The translations under genes and the position numbers were made by a program. Positions 3,615 through 15,226 of a stretch of DNA of 64,000 bases are shown piece by piece. Under the pieces are notes generated by a model, which saw nothing but the letters and a program-made list of their open reading frames with translations, was not told the origin of the DNA and ran no database searches. Each line of letters starts with the position of its first letter. The first letter of the stretch is position 1. This DNA is from Candidatus Andersenbacteria bacterium RIFCSPHIGHO2_02_FULL_46_16 (GTDB taxonomy: Bacteria; Patescibacteriota; Andersenbacteria; UBA10190): positions 18,651-82,650 of the forward strand of contig MHHQ01000005.1 of NCBI GenBank assembly GCA_001817065.1, written 5' to 3'.

Positions 3615-3685
3615 CGGGGTGTAGTGTAACGGTAGCACGAGTCCTTTGGGAGGATTTAGTCCGAGTTCAAATCTCGGCACCCCGA
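3615..3685 (+). tRNA. tRNA-Pro (anticodon UGG)
   Basis: Hand-folded cloverleaf: acceptor CGGGGTG/CACCCCG, D-arm GTGT-AACGGTA-GCAC, anticodon arm AGTCC-TTTGGGA-GGATT (anticodon TGG), T-arm CCGAG-TTCAAAT-CTCGG, discriminator A. CCA not encoded. 71 nt. Confidence 0.75.
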
Positions 3686-3688
3686 CAC

Positions 3689-3733
3689 TTCTTCGCTCTT
3701 CACTATTGCTTCGAGCTTCGAAGTGCAAGCACT
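3689..3733. repeat. Direct repeat copy 1 (core GCTTCGAGCTTCGAAGTGCAAGCACT)
   Basis: A 26-bp exact core at 3708-3733 (about 45 bp imperfect) recurs at 3971-4015. Copy 1 immediately follows the tRNA-Pro 3' end and is followed by a T-run. Confidence 0.8.
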
Positions 3734-3970
3734 TTTTTTGGAGAGCAAACATTAATTCGGCAGACCAGATACGAAGAAATGCCCTGCGAAGCCCGATGGG
3801 GCGAAGTGTTGGCTAGTCAGGGACAACGCATCTTAATTTGACTTAACTAAGTGAAGATAAAAAACAGCTCATCGTTTTGAAGAACAATTACTTCATTCTC
3901 CAGAGTCCTGCAAAAAATCCTGTCTGCTCTATAGAGGCTAAATTAGATGCGTTGACCCTGGTTGGCTAGT

Positions 3971-4015
3971 GACTTCTCTTTTCGCTTACGCTTCGAGCTT
4001 CGAAGTGCAAGCACT
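3971..4015. repeat. Direct repeat copy 2 (core GCTTCGAGCTTCGAAGTGCAAGCACT)
   Basis: Exact 26-bp copy at 3990-4015. Together with copy 1 it brackets an inverted-repeat-bounded segment about 250 bp long. Confidence 0.8.
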
Positions 4016-4150
4016 GCTTGAAAGCGTGACCCCATCTTTACCCACCGGGATCTAATCTTTGTTTACCTGGTGCATTAAGATGGGAATAAGAAAAAAGGGA
4101 AAGGCAAATCCCCGGCTGGATGCCGGGGATTATTTATTAATGAGAATTGA

Positions 4151-6805
4151 TTATGTAGGAGGTGGAGCATAACCGCCATCACCGCCGCCGTCAGGCGCTG
4201 GAGCAGGTTCACCGCCACCACCGTCACCACCAGGGGGTGGGGCGAAATCACCACCACCGCCATCACCTTCACCACTATCAGCAGGCGGGGGAGGTGGATT
4301 GCCTTCACCATCATTCGGTGGCGGGGCAAAATTACCACCATTATCGGGAGGGGGTGGGGCTTGTTGGCCAGCTGGCGGGGGATTATATACGTCTCCACCG
4401 GGTGCTTCGTTGGTCGGGGGGGTGTAATAAGATCCAGTGCCGCTGTTAGGTGGGGGCTGGTTCATGGGTTGTGTGTAGGAAGGGTAATACGGTCCTGACG
4501 AATTTTGAGTCGGCATGGACTGGTAGACGCCAGGATTATAAACACCACCGGTGGATGATGGGGGACGATAACCGGAATCCATAGCGCCATCGGGGCGGTA
4601 CGGGGCTCCCGGCATGTAAGCGCCAGGTTGTCCTGTACTGTAATTATTTTGATTGGGTATATAAGACGAGGCACGGAAATTCGTGTTAAAAGAACCGTCT
4701 GGATTATACATGGCGCCGGGACCGGGCACAGGCTGTCCTTGAGGATTTACCGGTACAGCATTACCTTGGAATATTTTGGGGGTGCCGTCAGAATTTATCT
4801 CACCGCGCTGCAGGGCTGCTTCATATTCTTTTTTCTCTTCACCAGTCATCTTGGCAGGATCAAAGCGACGCTCAACCGCCAGTCCTGGCGGTGGTGCTTG
4901 GAAGAGAAAGAAGTTGCTAGCCCTTTCGGCGGGTGGGATTTCGCGGAAGGCTTTTAAGCAGTCGGCAGGGTTGGTACAACCGTTGTGCCCAACATACTGG
5001 GCGGGTGTCTGGGGCAAAATATTATACACAGGCACCGGCGGACGGAAGGAAGTCATACCTGGAAAAACTGGCGGCCGTCCCTTTTCTTCGGGTTTAAAGC
5101 CCACGTTGACGGGTGGCTTGAGAGCATAACCGCTGGGTGAAGTATAGTTACTGCAATCATTGGAACTGCAATATTTTTCAATGGCATTAATGTCCCGAAG
5201 TCCCCCCGGGCCAGCGAACGGCAGTTCCTTTAGGCCTTCAGGCTTTTGCCAGCCTTCAGGATCTTTTAAGCCGAATCGTTCGTGAAAACCGGCAATGCGC
5301 TGCATTTGCGGTGGTAAGTAGTTATCGATATTGGCTAAGGCCGTGGCATCGTCCTTGAATTGGTCGCGCAGTTGGGCTTTGTATTGCTCAAGCGCAGCAA
5401 TGTCATTAGGCGAAGGCTTAAAACGATATTCTAATTCTTTATACTTCGCGAACGCATTGGGACGATGTTGCTCCATAGCGCTTAATGTTTCGGGCGGAAT
5501 GTAATCAGGCCGCATGGTTTGTTGCAGACGGTCTAGATTGACGGTGGCAACCCAATAGGGCAGCAAGTCAGGAGGGACCATGGTGACACCAGGGACAAAG
5601 GTAGCGCTGAATGATTCTAGTTTGGCTAATGTGGCATCATCTGGCCTGACCCCTTCAAAGCGGCTAAGCGAATTAACTTTGTCTAATTCAATAATGGATC
5701 TGATTTGCTGCGGATAAATAGTGGCGGCTGTTTCATCAAGGGCGCCTTTGATATCGGCTGGAGTGATATAGCCATTGGCCGCAAACTCTTCAAAAACATC
5801 TCGAACAGCTTGCCGGGTGTCTAGGCTGTAAATGTGGTCGGCCTGTTCCTGCTGCAGCACACCGATGCTTTTGAGGGATTGCAAGCCCTGTACGACACCG
5901 GCAGTAACGGCTGGTTTATCAAGTTTGTCGGCGGCTTGATCGACGCCGCTGGCTGCGGCTTGGCTTAAGGCGTTAAAATCAGTTTCGGCGTCTTCTGGAA
6001 TAGTGGCGCTGTTTTGATCGATAGTGATCTGCAGGCCGGCGATTTGTTCTTCAAACTGGCGGGTGACTTCCTCATCTAGGTCGCGGTCAAATAGTTCATG
6101 CAGTGTATCCTCCACGCGCTGCACCGCCGCATTAGCAGCAGGGTGCTGGTCCTGGATTAATTGTTGGGCTTCAGCGGCGCGTTCGGTAACCCGGCGATAA
6201 GTACGTTCCGGTGCCCGACCGGGAGTAATGAGATTGAGAGAGCCGTCCCATATGTTCTCACCGAAAATTTCCAGACTATGAAGAAAACCACGACTGGTGC
6301 CTGGAGATGGCAAAGGGGGGGGCTGAACGTCAGCGGAAGAGTCGGAGGCTTTTTGCTGTAAGGCAGCGTCGGTTGGAGGAGGGACGGGGGCTAGAATCCG
6401 CTCGTCTTCGACAGTACCCAAAGCGGTGTATTGACCGACGAGCTGGCTAATGTCTAGACCAGTAGGGATTTGATCCGGTCCTATTTCCACTAATCCTTGT
6501 CCTTCAACGCCGATGAAATACTGCGTTTGGGTGGGCGCGTCGGGGTTGGGATATGCTTCGATCCAGCCGGTGATGACCAGGTCTGGATTTACTTCCTCGG
6601 CAGTAGTGGTCGCTTGTAAAACTTTTCCAGCGCCAGGAATGGCTGTAGGAAGGTTGTTATAATAAGGTCCCCAGTCGTAATAATTGGTTAATTGCGAATA
6701 GCTGGCGCTAACCGGCTGATATAAAAGCAGCCCAGTTATAATAACCGTGGCTGAAATAAAAAACGTGTGCCAAGAAAATCCCTTGGAAAGGTAGTGATAC
6801 TTCAT
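4151..6805 (-). CDS. Large secreted protein with extreme C-terminal Pro/Gly/Tyr/Asn-rich low-complexity tail
   Basis: 884 aa. N-terminal signal/TM segment 'WHTFFISATVIITGLLLYQPVSA'. C-terminal third is P/G/Y/N/Q-rich ('…PPPPADSGEGDGGGGDFAPPPGG…'). No catalytic motif recognised. Confidence 0.6.
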   Translation of the reverse strand: MKYHYLSKGFSWHTFFISATVIITGLLLYQPVSASYSQLTNYYDWGPYYNNLPTAIPGAGKVLQATTTAEEVNPDLVITGWIEAYPNPDAPTQTQYFIGVEGQGLVEIGPDQIPTGLDISQLVGQYTALGTVEDERILAPVPPPTDAALQQKASDSSADVQPPPLPSPGTSRGFLHSLEIFGENIWDGSLNLITPGRAPERTYRRVTERAAEAQQLIQDQHPAANAAVQRVEDTLHELFDRDLDEEVTRQFEEQIAGLQITIDQNSATIPEDAETDFNALSQAAASGVDQAADKLDKPAVTAGVVQGLQSLKSIGVLQQEQADHIYSLDTRQAVRDVFEEFAANGYITPADIKGALDETAATIYPQQIRSIIELDKVNSLSRFEGVRPDDATLAKLESFSATFVPGVTMVPPDLLPYWVATVNLDRLQQTMRPDYIPPETLSAMEQHRPNAFAKYKELEYRFKPSPNDIAALEQYKAQLRDQFKDDATALANIDNYLPPQMQRIAGFHERFGLKDPEGWQKPEGLKELPFAGPGGLRDINAIEKYCSSNDCSNYTSPSGYALKPPVNVGFKPEEKGRPPVFPGMTSFRPPVPVYNILPQTPAQYVGHNGCTNPADCLKAFREIPPAERASNFFLFQAPPPGLAVERRFDPAKMTGEEKKEYEAALQRGEINSDGTPKIFQGNAVPVNPQGQPVPGPGAMYNPDGSFNTNFRASSYIPNQNNYSTGQPGAYMPGAPYRPDGAMDSGYRPPSSTGGVYNPGVYQSMPTQNSSGPYYPSYTQPMNQPPPNSGTGSYYTPPTNEAPGGDVYNPPPAGQQAPPPPDNGGNFAPPPNDGEGNPPPPPADSGEGDGGGGDFAPPPGGDGGGGEPAPAPDGGGDGGYAPPPT

Positions 6806-6853
6806 AGGATGAGTTAAATTGGTTAATTTACATGGTTATTATACGCTTGATCT

Positions 6854-9378: not shown

Positions 9379-9453
9379 GCGGGTATCGTATAATGGCTAT
9401 TACAACAGATTTCCAATCTGTGAACACGGGTTCGACTCCCGTTACCCGCTCCA
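9379..9453 (+). tRNA. tRNA-Gly (anticodon UCC), CCA encoded
   Basis: Acceptor GCGGGTA/TACCCGC, anticodon arm ACAGA-TTTCCAA-TCTGT (anticodon TCC), T-arm ACGGG-TTCGACT-CCCGT, discriminator T, then CCA. The track ORF 9202..9393 overlaps it and is spurious. Confidence 0.8.
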
Positions 9454-9498
9454 CGAAATTATTCTGTGTATGCTTGTGCTGGCATCTTCGGCTATCTT

Positions 9499-9870
9499 TC
9501 AGATATTTTGATTAGGAAAATGCAGCATCGCCTTTTTTAAATATGCCCAATTGCACAAAAAGGGGAGTAATAAGGTTAGGCTATTTATAACAAGTTGTAC
9601 GTAGAGTGGAGTCCTGAAAGTATCAGGAATTTTTGAAGAAGCCGTTGGCAGTGCCGTAATTACCGCTAGGATGCTTAGAGGAAAGACAACGAACCAGAAC
9701 AATCTACGCGGAATCCTTCCTGCCAAAATGATTGATCCTATGATTAAATAAATAACTCCGACCAACGCGTGAACAATAAAACCAAACTGGCTTATAAGAG
9801 CCAATATAGATAGAAGAAAGAAAAGAAAGATATCGAACATCCCCAGAAGGTAGCGCCACAGTGGATTCAT
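9499..9870 (-). CDS. Small integral membrane protein (3-4 TM), hypothetical
   Basis: 123 aa, almost entirely hydrophobic segments. No recognisable motif. Confidence 0.4.
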   Translation of the reverse strand: MNPLWRYLLGMFDIFLFFLLSILALISQFGFIVHALVGVIYLIIGSIILAGRIPRRLFWFVVFPLSILAVITALPTASSKIPDTFRTPLYVQLVINSLTLLLPFLCNWAYLKKAMLHFPNQNI

Positions 9871-10273
9871 GACACAATTGTACTACATAAAATAAAACAT
9901 TTTTCCGGAGGAAATACAAACCAGCACAACAATGTATCTCTGCTTCCTTCGCCGTAGTTAATCCTCCTGTCTGACCTCACTTAAATTCAATTCTGGTATC
10001 CCGCTCCATTCTACACCCTCAGACGAAGAATGGCTCTGCATAGCTTTAGAGCGAAGCATGGGCTGTTCACAAACTTGCGTTCGTTTAACTATGACGGGCT
10101 ACGAAGGGCAAGCCACTTCTTCGGAGCTACGAAGGGCAAGTAATTTCACCCAGCCAAAGGCGGTAGCAGATGGAGCGAGGCTCGATCAGCAGGTCGAGGT
10201 TCCCCCCGAAGTGCGATTTGCCCTGGGCGGCCCGCTCACGTAATAAACAACCCTGACGAAAGTCCAGGGTTAT

Positions 10274-11209
10274 TTATTGTATACTCTTTTCCAATTGTTC
10301 AAGCTTTTTGCGTAAATTAGTGTTCACGGCAATATAGCCTCGTTTCTTTTTTTCCTTCTTAGTTTCCAAAACTTTTTCTGCATCAGTGAGACAATTTTTA
10401 AACCAATCAATCTTTTGTTTTACAAGTTCGAGCGCGTTTATATTTTTAGCGCATTCTCTTAAAGTTTCCAAAAATCTACCCATAACTTCTTCGTAACCCT
10501 CGACTGAATGTGTTTCTGGTGATGGTGTGCGGCCATAATATTCGTCGGTGACATGATACTCCCAATCAAATTCTAAATTTTCAAGACGTAAGTACTCTCT
10601 TAGATATTTCCCCTGTATAGCTTCGGAATAGGCTGCGAAGGCTTCGGCATCCACTTGTAATTGATGGTTTCCCGTTGCTTGGGAAAATTTTTCCAATTCT
10701 TCGGCCATTGTTTTTATGACGGGGATTACCCCTAAAAAATCATCGTCGGATTCATGCACTTTATAAAAACGTTGTATCTGGAGACGTATCATATTTGCAA
10801 CGTCTGATAATCCTTCTATCCTGTTTTTATCTAGTGCAGAATCCTCAAATCCCTTTAACAACCCAATGAATTTTTCACTGTCTACTATATTAAGAATTAT
10901 GTGCTTGCTGGTATCTTTCTCCCTTTCTTCCTCTGGTAGGGGCACAAATAGAGTTTCCCTTAAATCGAGTTCTAATCCAGTCTTTGCCAGAAAATCAGTA
11001 TATTTTTCAGAAAGTGCTTCCATTTTTTTACTCACTGAGCTAAGAGCCTCAAAATCGTCATTACCATTCTCTCCTATCCGTTCCCATACATTAGCGTTGT
11101 CGTTCGCATTTTCAATATCGATAATGAAATCAGACAGTTGATCTTGAGGGAGGTTAACTTCATTTTCCTCGGGATTTCCGTAGTTAGATGGATTGAATCT
11201 TTCTCGCAT
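10274..11209 (-). CDS. Hypothetical acidic cytoplasmic protein, AT-rich orphan gene
   Basis: 311 aa and no recognisable domain. Markedly more AT-rich than its neighbours. Flanked by GAGCTTCGAAGNGCAAG-type repeats. A stem-loop terminator lies just past its stop, at roughly 10246-10272. Confidence 0.55.
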   Translation of the reverse strand: MRERFNPSNYGNPEENEVNLPQDQLSDFIIDIENANDNANVWERIGENGNDDFEALSSVSKKMEALSEKYTDFLAKTGLELDLRETLFVPLPEEEREKDTSKHIILNIVDSEKFIGLLKGFEDSALDKNRIEGLSDVANMIRLQIQRFYKVHESDDDFLGVIPVIKTMAEELEKFSQATGNHQLQVDAEAFAAYSEAIQGKYLREYLRLENLEFDWEYHVTDEYYGRTPSPETHSVEGYEEVMGRFLETLRECAKNINALELVKQKIDWFKNCLTDAEKVLETKKEKKKRGYIAVNTNLRKKLEQLEKSIQ

Positions 11210-11502
11210 TTTTTAACATTATTACAGACACGTTGGGAAATCAAAGTAAACCATTGGGAACAATATTTCCTCTATTTGCTAAAATCAGGCACAAAGAAAG
11301 TCGCCTGCATATTCATAACCGCAGTTCGGACGTCACTTAAGAAGGAGCTCCCTTTTTCGTTCCTCGCTACGCGCGGAGCTTCGAAGAGCAAGCCAATCTT
11401 TAGGTGCAGTAGTTTATCTTCTGTTAAGTTTTAGCGAAGAAATTTTTAGTGGAGAAAAAGTGGCTAGATTAATGTTGCGCAGTCTATTACCTGGTCCTAT
11501 AA

Positions 11503-11844
11503 TTGACGCGTATGAAGCGAAGTAAAACAACGAAAAAACGAGACGAGTACACGGTTGTATTGGAAGATATAAGGGATAACTTCCGTGCTTTTGGCGAAGC
11601 CTTGCAATTAGTAATTGATAAGGTGCAACAAATTGAAGCATTGCAACAAGGAACCGAAAACAAACTGCAGAAAATTGAAGCGTCACAACATGGAACAGAA
11701 ACCAGGCTGGAAAAAATTGAGACGAGCGTTGATGTCATTAAAACAGAAGTGCGTCTGATCCGCCGTGATCAAGTCAGCCGGGATGAATTTGATTTACTAG
11801 AAAAACGGGTGTCGCGAATTGAGAAGAGGATGAGTGTACGGTAG
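11503..11844 (+). CDS. Small coiled-coil protein with internal repeat, hypothetical
   Basis: 113 aa. Heptad-rich, with duplicated 'QQGTENKLQKIEA / SQHGTETRLEKIET'. Divergent from the orphan gene. Confidence 0.45.
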   Translation: MTRMKRSKTTKKRDEYTVVLEDIRDNFRAFGEALQLVIDKVQQIEALQQGTENKLQKIEASQHGTETRLEKIETSVDVIKTEVRLIRRDQVSRDEFDLLEKRVSRIEKRMSVR

Positions 11845-12043
11845 TTTTCATGCCAGAGAATTTTGAGAGAATACGTAACTATAGTCTAACTTATACTGAC
11901 TTGGAGGACAGGGTTGAAGCGATTGGGAGGAAGTCGGAAAAACTACAAAAGTGGTAAAAATATTAAAAAGTGATGCTAATGGTTTATTATTGCGGTTGAG
12001 CAATAAGCTGGTTAATTAATTAAGCTGTGAATTACGAAACTAA

Positions 12044-12595
12044 ACCTACCCGTATTTTCCAGCCACGACTAAAACCATGCTGCTGATCCACGATCTCGGC
12101 AAAACTTTCTTCTGTCCCCTCAAGAGCAACCGCCTGGTTGACGATAGTGGCGGCATTAGACCATACAACAACGTCAGTGAGCTCAAGTGGTCAGAACATG
12201 AGCTTGAACATGGCAAGTTGGTCAAAGTCAAAGGTTTTCCCGGCTCTTTCAAGCTGATGCTGTTCCGCATCATGGTCTCTACCAACCGGACGGAATACAT
12301 CGTTACCAACAACCTAACTCAAAACTCCCTGGCTGATGCTCAACAAGCGAGCGCCACCAGGTGGAAGATTGAGCAGCTTCATCGCGAGGAGAAACAGCTG
12401 ACCGGTATTGAAAAGTGTCAGGCCAGAATTAACCGCTCTCAGCGTAATCATATTTGCCTGGCAATGTTGGCTTGGAGCGTGCTCACCCAAGCCGCCCACG
12501 CTGCCGGCAAAACCATCTACCAGCAGAAATTGTCGCCGTTGCAACGATTCGTGGTCAATCAGTGGCGGAATCCGGCGACAACATTTGTGTTGTAA
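12044..12595 (+). pseudogene. C-terminal fragment of a DDE transposase (IS701/IS4-like), N-terminally truncated IS remnant
   Basis: 'ATRWKIEQLHREEKQLTGIEKCQARINRSQRNHICLAMLAWSVL' matches the C-terminal catalytic-E signature of IS701/IS4 transposases (RWxIE…K…G…Q.R…H…L.ML). Only about 170 aa are present, and the frame opens abruptly after AT-rich DNA with no N-terminal DDE region. Confidence 0.6.
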
Positions 12596-12884
12596 CGGGA
12601 TTCTACAACTGAATATGTGGAGTGGTATGCGAAAGTCCTACTGGAAATAAGTCCGAACCCTGTCCACGAAGGAGCTCAATATATGAAGGAAGAAAGGTAT
12701 CCATTTTCTCATCGTTCGCTAATGCTAGCTGCTCCTATCCCACAAAGTGACTTCAGTTGGCGGGCAACTTTTATAAGTTTGGTTTGTTCGAATGATCATT
12801 TTGACTTGTCCGTGATTTTACTTTTTTTGTGCACAGAAGACAATTTTTTATGCTATCATTAGCAACAAAGGAATTAATTGATTA

Positions 12885-14516
12885 TTGATGATGCAGGATT
12901 TGATGAAGTGGGGGACAACTAATAATAAAAACCAGAGGTTCTTTAGGTTGGTTTGGGTGATTCTAGGAGCAGTGATGCTTTATGAGGTCTTTATTTATTC
13001 GGGTTTGGGATATTATCAATATCCTTATGTTCGCAGTGTGCCCCTGTGGTTAATGAAGCACGTATTGATCGTGGCGGGGGTAATCGGCTGGCTAGTACTG
13101 GTGGCGAAGGTGAATGTGGCGACAAGCGGCCGACGTTTAAGGAAGATACTGGCTAGCATTTTACTATTTATTGTAGGTGGAGCGATTTTTGCGTGGGTGG
13201 TTGAGATCGGTAAACCGGCTGGAGGATTTTTCTATAGTCCGCTTGATGAATCGTATACAGCGCCTTTTGCGTTTGTTTTGCTCTACATGCCGGTTGTACT
13301 AGTTTTTTTAACCGGCTTGCGGTTAATTACTAAGAAGGCTTCTGACAAAACGCTGACATTACTAGCAATTTTAGGCGGGATCGTCGCGGCAACATTGATC
13401 GCGCACGTCCTTTTCACCCAATGGATCTTGTCTGACATACCCCTAGACAAAGAATTTCTACGCGGTAAAGAAACGAGGGTAATTGGTAAGGGCTGGAAGG
13501 AAGCACCCGAGCAGTATGGCACACGCCTTTCCCCGCGGTTTGTTAGAACCGAACAGTTTCCCCAAGGTGACCGAGAGATAGAGTCCCTTCATCGAGCAGC
13601 GGAAAAATTGACAATTGATCAGTGGGGTGCGGTTTGCCAAAAAGTAAAGTGGGCGTCGTTAGGCCAAGGAATTTTGGGCAGCAAAGCAGCGAGTTCTTGC
13701 TGGTATGTCGGAGCAATAATCTATGAGGAACCTTTGTTTTGTGAAAAAACCACCGAGATGGTGGATGTTTGCCGGGCTGACTTGGCGTTACTGCTTGGGG
13801 ATATTGCCGTGTGTAAGGGAGAGAAGGATTGTATGGGCAGAAATCCTGGTCTATTGAACCAAGAAGGCATGTCGTGCGAAAGCCTAATAACAGAAGAAGA
13901 TAAGCAGGTGCCATTTTACACGGCGCTTGGTTTAACACCTTATGCGGAATGCCAACGTCGCACGCTGCAGGAGCAGCAGAAAACAATGACGTGGAGTGAA
14001 AATACATATAGGCTGGCGATGACAAAGCTAATTATTAATGAGTGGTATGCGGATACAGATAATCCCGACCAGTCATACGTTGAATTAAAAAACATCAGCA
14101 ACAACACGATAGTGTTAAAAGATGTGGAGATTAATCGAATACCCCTGCCCGCGATGACGATGGCCCCAAATGAGATTGTTGTATTTTACGGCAGTGATCT
14201 GCGAAAACTAACTGTTGACTTGAGCCGTTTATTTCTGCCGATAGCTAATGAAATGAAACCATTATTAAGTCGCGAATTAGATCTATCAATTTTTGGAGGG
14301 CAAGGTTCTTATACTGATGTACCGGCCAACATGTCTACAGGGGCGGTAAATTTGCAGCCGTTAAGGGAAGGAAAGTATTACGATCACTGGCAAGAAGTGT
14401 ACCAGCTAATGCCACCCACACCGGGGGAGGAGAATAATGTGATAAAGGCAATACCGCCGAGTCCAAGACCTAAGTCTACCCCCGGCGGCGTGGATATTCT
14501 TTTCCAGGGTATATAA
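12885..14516 (+). CDS. Membrane protein with multi-TM N-terminal region and Cys-containing extracytoplasmic C-terminal domain, hypothetical
   Basis: 543 aa, with about 5 TM segments in the first 180 aa, then a soluble domain. No motif recognised. Confidence 0.5.
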   Translation: MMMQDLMKWGTTNNKNQRFFRLVWVILGAVMLYEVFIYSGLGYYQYPYVRSVPLWLMKHVLIVAGVIGWLVLVAKVNVATSGRRLRKILASILLFIVGGAIFAWVVEIGKPAGGFFYSPLDESYTAPFAFVLLYMPVVLVFLTGLRLITKKASDKTLTLLAILGGIVAATLIAHVLFTQWILSDIPLDKEFLRGKETRVIGKGWKEAPEQYGTRLSPRFVRTEQFPQGDREIESLHRAAEKLTIDQWGAVCQKVKWASLGQGILGSKAASSCWYVGAIIYEEPLFCEKTTEMVDVCRADLALLLGDIAVCKGEKDCMGRNPGLLNQEGMSCESLITEEDKQVPFYTALGLTPYAECQRRTLQEQQKTMTWSENTYRLAMTKLIINEWYADTDNPDQSYVELKNISNNTIVLKDVEINRIPLPAMTMAPNEIVVFYGSDLRKLTVDLSRLFLPIANEMKPLLSRELDLSIFGGQGSYTDVPANMSTGAVNLQPLREGKYYDHWQEVYQLMPPTPGEENNVIKAIPPSPRPKSTPGGVDILFQGI

Positions 14517-14682
14517 AAAAGATACCGAAATTGACGCTGATATCGATCGAAGGGAATATCTTGGTGAGGATAACTGCAATCCCTGAGGTTTATAGGATCG
14601 GGTGCCGGAGAGGGTGAACGAAAAAGAAGCCACTGCGCAGTCACCCATGATGAAGCTCTAAACCCGTCCTAGCGATGCTGTT

Positions 14683-15144
14683 CTAGAAGGCTTGAGTAGT
14701 TAACAATTCTTGTTTAGTTATGCCCAATTTCGCGATTAGCTCTTGCATGCAAACTAATTTCTGGCGATGGATTTCTTCTCTTTTTAAACATGCTTGATAA
14801 ACACTCTCGGGACCAAAGTCACAGCTGCCCGACACAATCTCGGGCATGAGCTGCTGCTCGACCAATTCTTCATACAAAGTCACAAGCTCCGCGGGATCAG
14901 ACCTTTTTATTTGACGGAGTTCGGTTTGGCAGGCACTGCTGAGCTGTCCCGGTACAGGTTCTTGTGTTTCCTCAATAACGCCTTCACCCATGATCGGCTG
15001 CGGGGCGGCAAGCCTTTGAGAACGAATCAATACTAGCACCAGCACTAACAATGCCAGAGTGATAATGATTAAGGCCAGCAATAGAGGAGACTTTTGACTT
15101 GGGTTCTTCATGGATGGGAATATATTAATCATAACACTTGGCAA
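14683..15144 (-). CDS. Small membrane-anchored protein, hypothetical
   Basis: 153 aa. One TM segment 'LLLALIIITLALLVLVLVLI', then a soluble domain with 4 Cys. Confidence 0.45.
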   Translation of the reverse strand: MPSVMINIFPSMKNPSQKSPLLLALIIITLALLVLVLVLIRSQRLAAPQPIMGEGVIEETQEPVPGQLSSACQTELRQIKRSDPAELVTLYEELVEQQLMPEIVSGSCDFGPESVYQACLKREEIHRQKLVCMQELIAKLGITKQELLTTQAF

Positions 15145-15226
15145 TAAAAAGTTAAAAAGTACATAATCGGAGGATTACCCAGGTTAGCCAGGAAGAGCGT
15201 GTGATGGACACAGGGTTAGGTATATT

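Follow-up and report, generated by a model that had tools for sequence, protein, structure and literature searches.

Features of the tRNA-Gly locus

We analyzed a 64,000-nucleotide (nt) stretch of contig MHHQ01000005.1 (hereafter "the window," to which all positions refer unless another locus is named) from Candidatus Andersenbacteria, focusing on the region directly downstream of a tRNA-Gly gene, which an initial annotation had marked at 9454–12880 as a candidate genomic islet. The window derives from a Candidatus Andersenbacteria population of the Rifle aquifer, and the matching locus was also found in the NCBI assemblies GCA_001817145.1 and GCA_001817135.1 and in ENA and JGI contigs. A 311-amino-acid (aa) protein of this region was encoded by 23 near-identical contigs of independent assemblies, and the arrangement was the same in all of them (23/23); therefore, an assembly artefact is ruled out, and for the same reason these contigs cannot show an empty site. 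The features of the region are the following.

9379–9453, + strand: tRNA-Gly(tcc) with encoded CCA (ARAGORN; Rfam, 64.4 bits); its 3' end is the insertion point
9450–9457, + strand: left copy of the 8-bp direct repeat TCCACGAA, at the islet boundary
9499–9870, − strand: gene for a very hydrophobic 123-aa small membrane protein (grand average of hydropathy [GRAVY] 1.15; isoelectric point [pI] 10.1), present in several public annotations
9986–10008, + strand: plausible relic of the 3' end of a different tRNA-Gly, TTCAATTCTGGTATCCCGCTCCA (17/23 identical to 9431–9453, the T-loop and acceptor end)
10009–10072, + strand: putative decayed copy of a tRNA-3'-end element (arm CCATTCT..AGAATGG, then the hairpin CTCTGCATAGC-TTTA-GAGCGAAGCATGGGC)
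10096–10141, + strand: tandem 3'-half repeat copies c3 and c4, GGGCTACGAAGGGCAAGCC / GAGCTACGAAGGGCAAGT (nhmmer profile positions 24–40 and 17–38)
10142–10273, no strand assigned: remainder of a GC-rich non-coding block and a hairpin (~10244–10266) just past the stop of the 311-aa gene (from sequence and GC content)
10274–11209, − strand: gene for the acidic 311-aa protein (pI 4.76), mostly helical
11370–11394, + strand: 3'-half repeat copy c5, between the divergent 311-aa and 113-aa genes (nhmmer profile positions 16–40)
11503–11844, + strand: gene for a basic 113-aa coiled-coil protein, divergent to the 311-aa gene (open reading frame [ORF] with an internal 14-residue duplication)
12062–12645, + strand: remnant of an IS701-family insertion sequence (IS), in which the transposase C-terminal half and right terminal inverted repeat are preserved (NF049921; C-terminus of Pfam DDE_Tnp_1)
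12663–12670, + strand: right copy of the 8-bp direct repeat TCCACGAA, 12 nt ahead of the restart of similarity to the relative L022 (12682)
12682–12884, + strand: ancestral downstream spacer of tRNA-Gly, shifted 3.2 kb by the islet (local alignment to L022 11896–12158)

The initial annotation had described a drop in GC content after tRNA-Gly, a small membrane protein gene, a GC-rich non-coding block with two repeat copies, a 311-aa acidic protein with no recognizable domain, a coiled-coil gene with an internal duplication, and the C-terminal remnant of an IS701/IS4-like transposase, and each of these was recovered. The GC content of 9454–12880 was 0.419, compared with 0.469 for the whole window, and ranked sixth lowest among 303 equal-sized windows (lowest 2%). 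The profile by gene and codon position showed that the cargo genes were atypical. Relative to the core genes (GC, 0.473 ± 0.023; GC at third codon positions [GC3], 0.475 ± 0.043), the 311-aa gene had the lowest GC in the window (0.375) and a GC3 of 0.327, 3.4 standard deviations (SD) below the core; the 123-aa gene had a GC of 0.392, 3.5 SD below the core; and the transposase fragment had a GC3 of 0.642, 3.9 SD above it. The departures of the islet from its host, of 3.4–3.9 SD, therefore run in opposite directions. The GC-rich non-coding block (10000–10299) had a GC of 0.52 and carried GCTACGAAGGGCAAG at 10098 and 10126.

Empty site and borders of the islet

Relatives were collected by a scan with the neighboring DUF2207 protein, taking one genome per species, and two of them had kept the gene order: L022 (78% aa identity in DUF2207) and L023 (58%). 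In both, tRNA-Pro, a 134-aa gene, DUF2207, and tRNA-Gly were followed by the 223-aa, 137-aa, LysM-M23, and RrnaAD genes, and DUF4349 was also found in L022. The 884-aa, 123-aa, 311-aa, 113-aa, 543-aa, and 153-aa genes and the transposase fragment were all missing from L022 and L023; tblastn recovered every flanking gene in these two genomes and none of the 123-aa, 311-aa, 113-aa, and transposase genes. A blastn comparison of the window with both relatives left 9452–15201 without a counterpart. The tRNA-Gly locus of these relatives is therefore empty, with the flanking order kept; the case that would have spoken against the initial annotation, relatives with the same genes at this position and of like composition, did not arise.

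The borders were located by comparison with L022. The tRNA-Gly regions were 94% identical, and the similarity ended at 9451 and resumed at 12682. In L022, tRNA-Gly is followed by CTTGT (5 nt) and then by TATGAGGG...; this flank, 5 nt past the tRNA, begins TATGAGGGAGAGG..., and its counterpart in the window starts at 12682. The 8-mer TCCACGAA, which consists of the discriminator base, CCA, and CGAA, has just two + strand copies in the entire 64 kb, starting at 9450 and 12663. Because it is limited to the two junctions, the islet comprises 9458–12662 (3,205 bp) together with one repeat copy. The right border had previously been set at 12880, about 200 nt too far; the true right edge lies at approximately 12662–12681. 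At the level of sequence comparison, these results establish that the islet was gained and where it begins and ends.

Two other delimitations were tried and rejected. A single insertion covering 9452–15201 was dropped, because the 543-aa and 153-aa genes are syntenic in a third relative, L281, and the L022 flank had been located at 12682. L281, the nearest relative by nucleotide identity, carries 543aa-153aa-DUF4349 in the same order (74–88% aa identity); it was considered as an empty site and dropped, since its contig begins inside the spacer. The segment 12885–15201, which adjoins the islet, thus contains the 543-aa gene (with a weak Lamin Tail Domain match) and the 153-aa gene, absent from L022 and L023 and syntenic in L281. 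Given this synteny and their host-like composition, these two genes lie outside the islet and represent a separate presence/absence difference.

Cargo genes and origin of the islet

Family scans covered all ORFs of at least 100 aa, plus one 61-aa ORF in Pfam. Outside the islet they matched DUF2207 and LTD, and within it they matched IS701 for the transposase fragment. The 311-aa protein had no match in Pfam, NCBIfam, PHROG, or PADLOC. It had been called an orphan, a status that did not survive the homology searches: a word-indexed search returned one homologue (L021, 62% identity, in a different gene context), and phmmer, run exhaustively over 1.8 billion representatives, returned at least 56 clusters of remote homologues at E ≤ 1e−3, mostly of 300–320 aa. 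The protein thus belongs to an uncharacterized family of about 305–320 aa, whose gene neighbors are housekeeping genes that vary between genomes. The contigs carrying the homologues have a GC of 0.35–0.41, and the low GC of the 311-aa gene probably reflects a Patescibacteria donor of lower GC. AlphaFold2, supplied with a 31-sequence alignment, gave a confident and mostly helical model with one beta hairpin (predicted local distance difference test [pLDDT], 82.7; predicted template modeling score [pTM], 0.80), which had no fold match in the PDB or BFVD at E < 0.001. A profile search against PDB sequences returned coiled-coil noise alone, and tblastn against phages and plasmids returned no match. 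In L021, a direct repeat of about 30 nt (CGTTCCACTATTCTTTGGAA..GTGGAAT; L021 positions 277–310 and 659–690) brackets an ArsR-type helix-turn-helix gene just upstream of the 62% homologue; judging from its placement, it may be a duplicate of an operator or promoter.

The 123-aa protein likewise matched nothing in Pfam, NCBIfam, PHROG, or PADLOC. The internal duplication of the 113-aa gene is a 42-nt tandem repeat at 11624–11707, and its protein had weak Pfam matches alone, to coiled-coil-type families. The PADLOC scan of the region gave 0 matches, and for the cargo the PHROG scan gave just function-less coiled-coil noise. The suggestion that the 311-aa and 113-aa genes form a defence or toxin pair consequently found no support: PADLOC and PHROG assigned no function, the 311-aa protein had no phage or plasmid match, and the neighbors of its homologues were unrelated housekeeping genes. 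By these searches, the cargo genes are without assignable function.

The transposase ORF (12077–12595, 172 aa) corresponds to positions 160–316 of the 318 positions of NCBIfam NF049921 (E = 7e−42). Its score of 143.9 is under the 250-bit cut-off, and it falls short of a full-length DDE transposase (about 290–320 aa); the N-terminal part was not found in any frame upstream. Compared with IS701 elements of the NF049921 subgroup, the remnant shares the C-terminal 157 model positions and the right terminal inverted repeat ...GCGAAAGTCCTACT (~12626–12645), which matches the ends of L282 and of L284, a comparison copy with a 286-aa transposase and both IS ends. It differs in having lost approximately 570 bp on the left, which comprised the left inverted repeat and the N-terminal half of the transposase; the remnant therefore cannot transpose. 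The inverted pair 11900–11915/12656–12671 was also considered as the IS ends and was dropped, since L284 and L282 place the true right end at ~12645.

The fragment in L282 (9520–10640 of that locus; GCA_002778765.1, Andersenbacteria CG10) has 81.5% nt identity with ours and the same truncation point and right end. Its genomic context is otherwise unrelated, with a tRNA gene, by eye apparently tRNA-Glu(ttc), about 460 nt upstream. Between the two is GGGGTTCGACACTTCTC, in which a T-loop fragment seems to be fused to the 5' arm of the hairpin element described below. A truncation point common to both genomes implies that, at one site at least, the fragment was no longer functional when it arrived.

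Close to the tRNA, a second short repeat was found. The 9-mer CCCGCTCCA forms the last 9 nt of tRNA-Gly (9445–9453) and of the sequence at 9986–10008, and its only copies in the window, on either strand, are those at 9445 and 10000. The 546-bp segment bounded by these copies holds the 123-aa gene alone. From its position, the exact 9-mer, and the sequence that follows, 9986–10008 is plausibly the relic of another tRNA-Gly 3' end; the end GTATCCCGCTC, as in the relic, also occurs on the real tRNA-Gly of L220. By eye, the adjacent 10009–10072 appears to resemble the far ends of same-strand elements in L217, L178, and L264. Further downstream, Rfam at E ≤ 5 gave no match in the GC-rich block at 10142–10273. 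About 100 nt of it (10142–10243) has no ORF support, Rfam match, or homologue in our searches, and ends in GGCGGCCCGCTCAC, which resembles a tRNA-Gly acceptor end followed by CAC, the first bases of the element 5' arm.

Taken together, these observations suggest that the region at 9458–12662, which begins directly at the tRNA-Gly 3' end, is probably a composite, decayed, and now immobile islet that was acquired horizontally. It would have been built in at least two layers. The inner layer would be the 546-bp segment with the 123-aa gene, bounded by CCCGCTCCA, the distal copy lying inside the 23-nt relic tRNA-Gly end; site-specific recombination at a tRNA 3' end is expected to leave such a footprint, and the recombinase would since have been lost. 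The outer layer would be a 2.65-kb segment carrying hairpin-element relics, the low-GC 311-aa gene, the 113-aa gene, and the IS remnant. We infer both the layering and a recombinase-type mechanism from the 8- and 9-bp repeats and the relic tRNA end.

The region resembles tRNA-associated genomic islands in being inserted exactly at a tRNA 3' end, in being absent from relatives, in its atypical composition, in short direct repeats that take in the tRNA terminus, and in containing a plausible relic tRNA end, an IS fragment, and cargo without known function. It differs from them in lacking an integrase or other recombinase, in its very small size (3.2 kb), in a tRNA that keeps its ancestral 3' end (identical to that of L022), and in its host, a member of the Patescibacteria (candidate phyla radiation, CPR). 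The repeats are also just 8 bp (TCCACGAA, outer) and 9 bp (CCCGCTCCA, inner, in the 17/23 relic), whereas the attachment (att) cores of tRNA-targeting islands are usually longer. Thus, in the earlier proposal of tRNA-targeted integration followed by decay of a mobile island, the insertion at the tRNA-Gly 3' end, the atypical composition, and the decayed IS stand; as no integrase is present, targeting of the tRNA by the integrating element is put forward as an inferred step. The islet is a routine case of gene gain beside a tRNA, here in a CPR genome; to our knowledge, few such islets have been described in Patescibacteria. It also adds an uncharacterized family of helical proteins, whose confident model matches no known fold.

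Several points weigh against this interpretation. The islet has neither an intact transposase nor terminal inverted repeats, so that its mechanism is read from the 8–9-bp repeats alone, and the Pfam, NCBIfam, and PHROG scans found no integrase or recombinase besides the truncated DDE transposase. Taken by itself, the 17/23 match of the relic is weak, since one other stretch of the window matches equally well by chance. A gap of 17 nt separates the right inverted repeat of the IS from the 8-bp repeat at 12663. In the alignment of the spacer with L022, the first ~75 nt are convincing and the remainder is weak (score 51, many gaps). The contig of L281 is uninformative on the islet, as it starts within this spacer, and the informative relatives number two, with a branching order that is not established, so that independent losses retain a low probability.

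We weighed two explanations for the origin of the whole segment against horizontal acquisition in layers. In the first, the IS701 element itself inserted 4 nt past the tRNA CCA and made the 8-bp duplication, and later insertions and deletions put the other genes in place of its left half. This sequence of events fits three observations: the remnant closes the islet on the right and keeps an intact right inverted repeat, an 8-bp direct repeat brackets the whole segment, and the same truncated remnant occurs ~460 nt after a tRNA in L282. However, the right inverted repeat ends at ~12645, 17 nt short of 12663, which indicates that the IS did not simply create that repeat; no left inverted repeat is present at 9458; and the truncation common to L282 implies a fragment that was dead before reaching at least one of its sites. 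IS701-family target duplications are, moreover, usually 4–5 bp. We therefore regard an IS701-driven origin as unlikely.

The second assumes no horizontal acquisition: an ancestral region would have been deleted beside the tRNA in L022 and, separately, in L023. The junction is visible in just two relatives, and the 543aa-153aa block, present in L281 and not in L022, demonstrates that presence/absence changes do happen here. Parallel loss nevertheless leaves much to be explained: the 311-aa gene, the 123-aa gene, and the transposase fragment deviate by 3.4–3.9 SD from the core composition, the first two downward and the third upward, an IS remnant and the plausible relic end of a foreign tRNA-Gly lie within the region, the 8-bp direct repeat that bounds it is present as a single copy in the inferred empty site, and the sole close homologue of the 311-aa protein (62% identity) occurs in a different context. 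An ancestral origin thus also seems improbable.

Repeat copies and a hairpin element at tRNA ends

The initial annotation had further noted that the islet repeats, of the form GAGCTWCGAAG-N-GCAAG, recur at tRNA-Pro, and this was confirmed. Allowing ≤2 mismatches, the pattern had 6 matches in the window, against 0.48 expected, a number reached by 0 of 100 shuffles. Five of the six are true family members, all on the + strand (starting at 3715, 3997, 10098, 10126, and 11378): those at 3715 and 3997 follow tRNA-Pro, and the last corresponds to the copy reported at 11374–11392, which we located at 11376–11393. A profile built from 64 units with nhmmer defined the copies c1–c5. The features around tRNA-Pro are the following.

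3615–3686, + strand: tRNA-Pro(tgg) (ARAGORN, Rfam)
3686–3817, + strand: complete copy c1 of the tRNA-abutting element (nhmmer profile positions 1–40, E = 3e−9)
3818–3960, no strand assigned: 143-bp miniature inverted-repeat transposable element (MITE) between c1 and c2, with 26-nt terminal inverted repeats that are 81% complementary
3971–4015, + strand: unit copy c2, 86% identical to c1 over 43 nt (nhmmer profile positions 19–40)

The sole complete copy in the window is c1, which starts directly past the discriminator base of tRNA-Pro, has the architecture of the same-strand class described below, and is absent after tRNA-Pro in L022 and L023. The copies c2–c5 are partial units, namely 3' halves, and all five copies lie in DNA that is missing from both relatives. 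The repeats are not ordinary terminators: of 12 terminator-like sites, a number equal to the shuffle expectation, none coincided with a repeat copy (0/12), and a role as promoters or terminators was dropped for want of support. The window copies fold no better than shuffles (z = −0.3 to −1.9), and Rfam, run on the window at the gathering score and at E ≤ 5, gave no match other than tRNAs. Nor did the proposal that the repeats are att sites or tRNA 3' duplicates hold, since they proved to be 3' halves of a widespread structured element and the junction repeats, TCCACGAA and CCCGCTCCA, are different sequences. Because c2–c5 are truncated 3' halves of a tRNA-abutting unit, the islet repeats are, as far as sequence can tell, debris of tRNA-flank DNA and not the recombination sites of the islet.

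That the repeats are instead working att-like sites of a cassette system, from which the 311-aa gene could be excised between c4 (10124–10141) and c5 (11376–11393), would suit the direct orientation and 15/18 identity of these two copies and the location of all five copies in lineage-specific DNA, but it is very improbable, and, as with the two alternatives above, less likely than a composite islet, given that c2–c5 are truncated halves of a unit that elsewhere forms a complete hairpin at tRNA ends, that no recombinase is present, that 23/23 population contigs have the same arrangement with no empty variant, and that the repeat does not flank the 311-aa homologues elsewhere.

A metagenome scan for GAGCTWCGAAGNGCAAGC returned at least 120 loci. 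Among the matches listed, to which the counts in this and the next paragraph refer, the 18-mer was preceded in 64 distinct cases by the arm C-N-CT(T/A)CT(T/A)CGCTC and a variable hairpin. The complete unit thus reads C-N-CTWCTWCGCTC, variable hairpin, GAGCTWCGAAG-N'-GCAAGC, and comprises a first helix (CNCTWC/GAAGN'G), a 3×3 internal loop (TWC/TWC), and a second helix (GCTC/GAGC) with an extension. The single unconstrained pair of the first helix was CG in 30 cases, AU in 25, UA in 4, UG in 2, and other in 1, and many double changes were seen among the extension pairs. The covariation score was 0.191, compared with 0.053 for shuffles (0 of 500 of which reached 0.191), and was far above all slid controls. 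The sequence of the element was conserved over contigs with a GC of 0.36–0.69 (loci L161–L280).

The units, which come from many uncultured bacteria, were closely associated with tRNA genes. In 670 kb containing 89 tRNAs, 34 of the 91 full units began ≤6 nt from a tRNA end, and two classes were distinguished. In the 3'-end class, the element lies just past the discriminator base on the tRNA's own strand (15 tRNAs, 9 of them tRNA-Gly). In the 5'-end class, it abuts the tRNA 5' end from the opposite strand (19 tRNAs), and the 18-mer is mostly 24–27 nt from the tRNA, at exactly 25 nt in 16/22. The 5'-end elements are ~105-nt palindromes of two inverted units, and 14 of 18 have a significant duplicate (10–12/12) of tRNA positions 1–12 about 93–107 nt away; in L212, two of them occur in tandem, with the same 12-mer after each. 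The duplication was found in 0/15 of the 3'-end elements, including c1 of the window.

The element was absent from 86 other Patescibacteria loci (1.36 Mb), so that its distribution is patchy. Rfam searches of 20 loci with canonical elements detected tRNAs, one flavin mononucleotide riboswitch, and one rRNA end, and nothing at the element. A scan of a viral collection for the repeat gave 53 single matches, about the number expected by chance from a rough estimate of the collection size. Keyword searches of the literature, which were not exhaustive, found no description of such a tRNA-end element.

Like MITEs and repetitive extragenic palindromic (REP) sequences or bacterial interspersed mosaic elements (BIMEs), the element is short and non-coding and consists of hairpin units in inverted pairs. 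The 5'-end class further resembles a transposed MITE in its terminal inverted repeats and 12-bp flanking duplication, and the tandem arrangement in L212 resembles re-insertion at a regenerated target. In contrast to these elements, however, its primary sequence is conserved across a GC of 0.36–0.69, its sites are exact tRNA ends, neither scattered at random between genes nor defined by a fixed target sequence, and it has no Rfam match and is missing from the 86 other loci. Unlike a MITE, its 3'-end class lacks the duplication. No partner transposase or REP-associated tyrosine transposase is known for it, no search for a coding partner having been made. REPs and BIMEs reach very high copy numbers per genome. 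The 64 kb of this genome covered here contain 5 copies of the element, all in lineage-specific DNA.

A tentative interpretation, in which we place little confidence, is that the element represents a class of small structured mobile elements, so far undescribed, which would insert precisely where mature tRNA sequences begin or end, with a 12-bp duplication of tRNA positions 1–12 at the 5' end, a start at the first base past the discriminator at the 3' end, and a target perhaps read from the tRNA itself. The element boundaries presumably coincide with the cleavage positions of RNase P and RNase Z. Because these are the boundaries and the targeted tRNAs are of unrelated sequence, the choice of target may come from the tRNA and not from the DNA sequence, for example, through a tRNA:DNA hybrid or a structure-guided or RNA-guided transposase. 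Such elements may also seed hotspots, such as the two tRNA-adjacent insertions of the window. Were the element mobile, its choice of target would be unusual; were it a functional RNA, it would represent a new motif linked to tRNAs. We consider it a more useful result than the islet and one that merits follow-up.

The insertion at tRNA-Pro occupies 3687–6839 (3.15 kb) in place of 144 bp in L022. It is lineage-specific, lies directly after the tRNA, and contains c1, the 143-bp MITE, c2, and the 884-aa gene. The MITE is flanked by a perfect 10-bp target duplication, GTTGGCTAGT, at 3808–3817 and 3961–3970, and has no second copy in the window. The 884-aa gene is on the − strand and encodes an acidic (pI 4.5), proline-rich protein with no family match in our scans. 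A weak 17-nt match suggests that the ancestral tRNA-Pro flank now lies near 4085. Over the 64 kb, the GC skew was positive in nearly all 1-kb bins, and the genes of the first 36 kb were mostly on the + strand, consistent with a single replication arm. The strand with positive GC skew (+) carries all five repeat copies.

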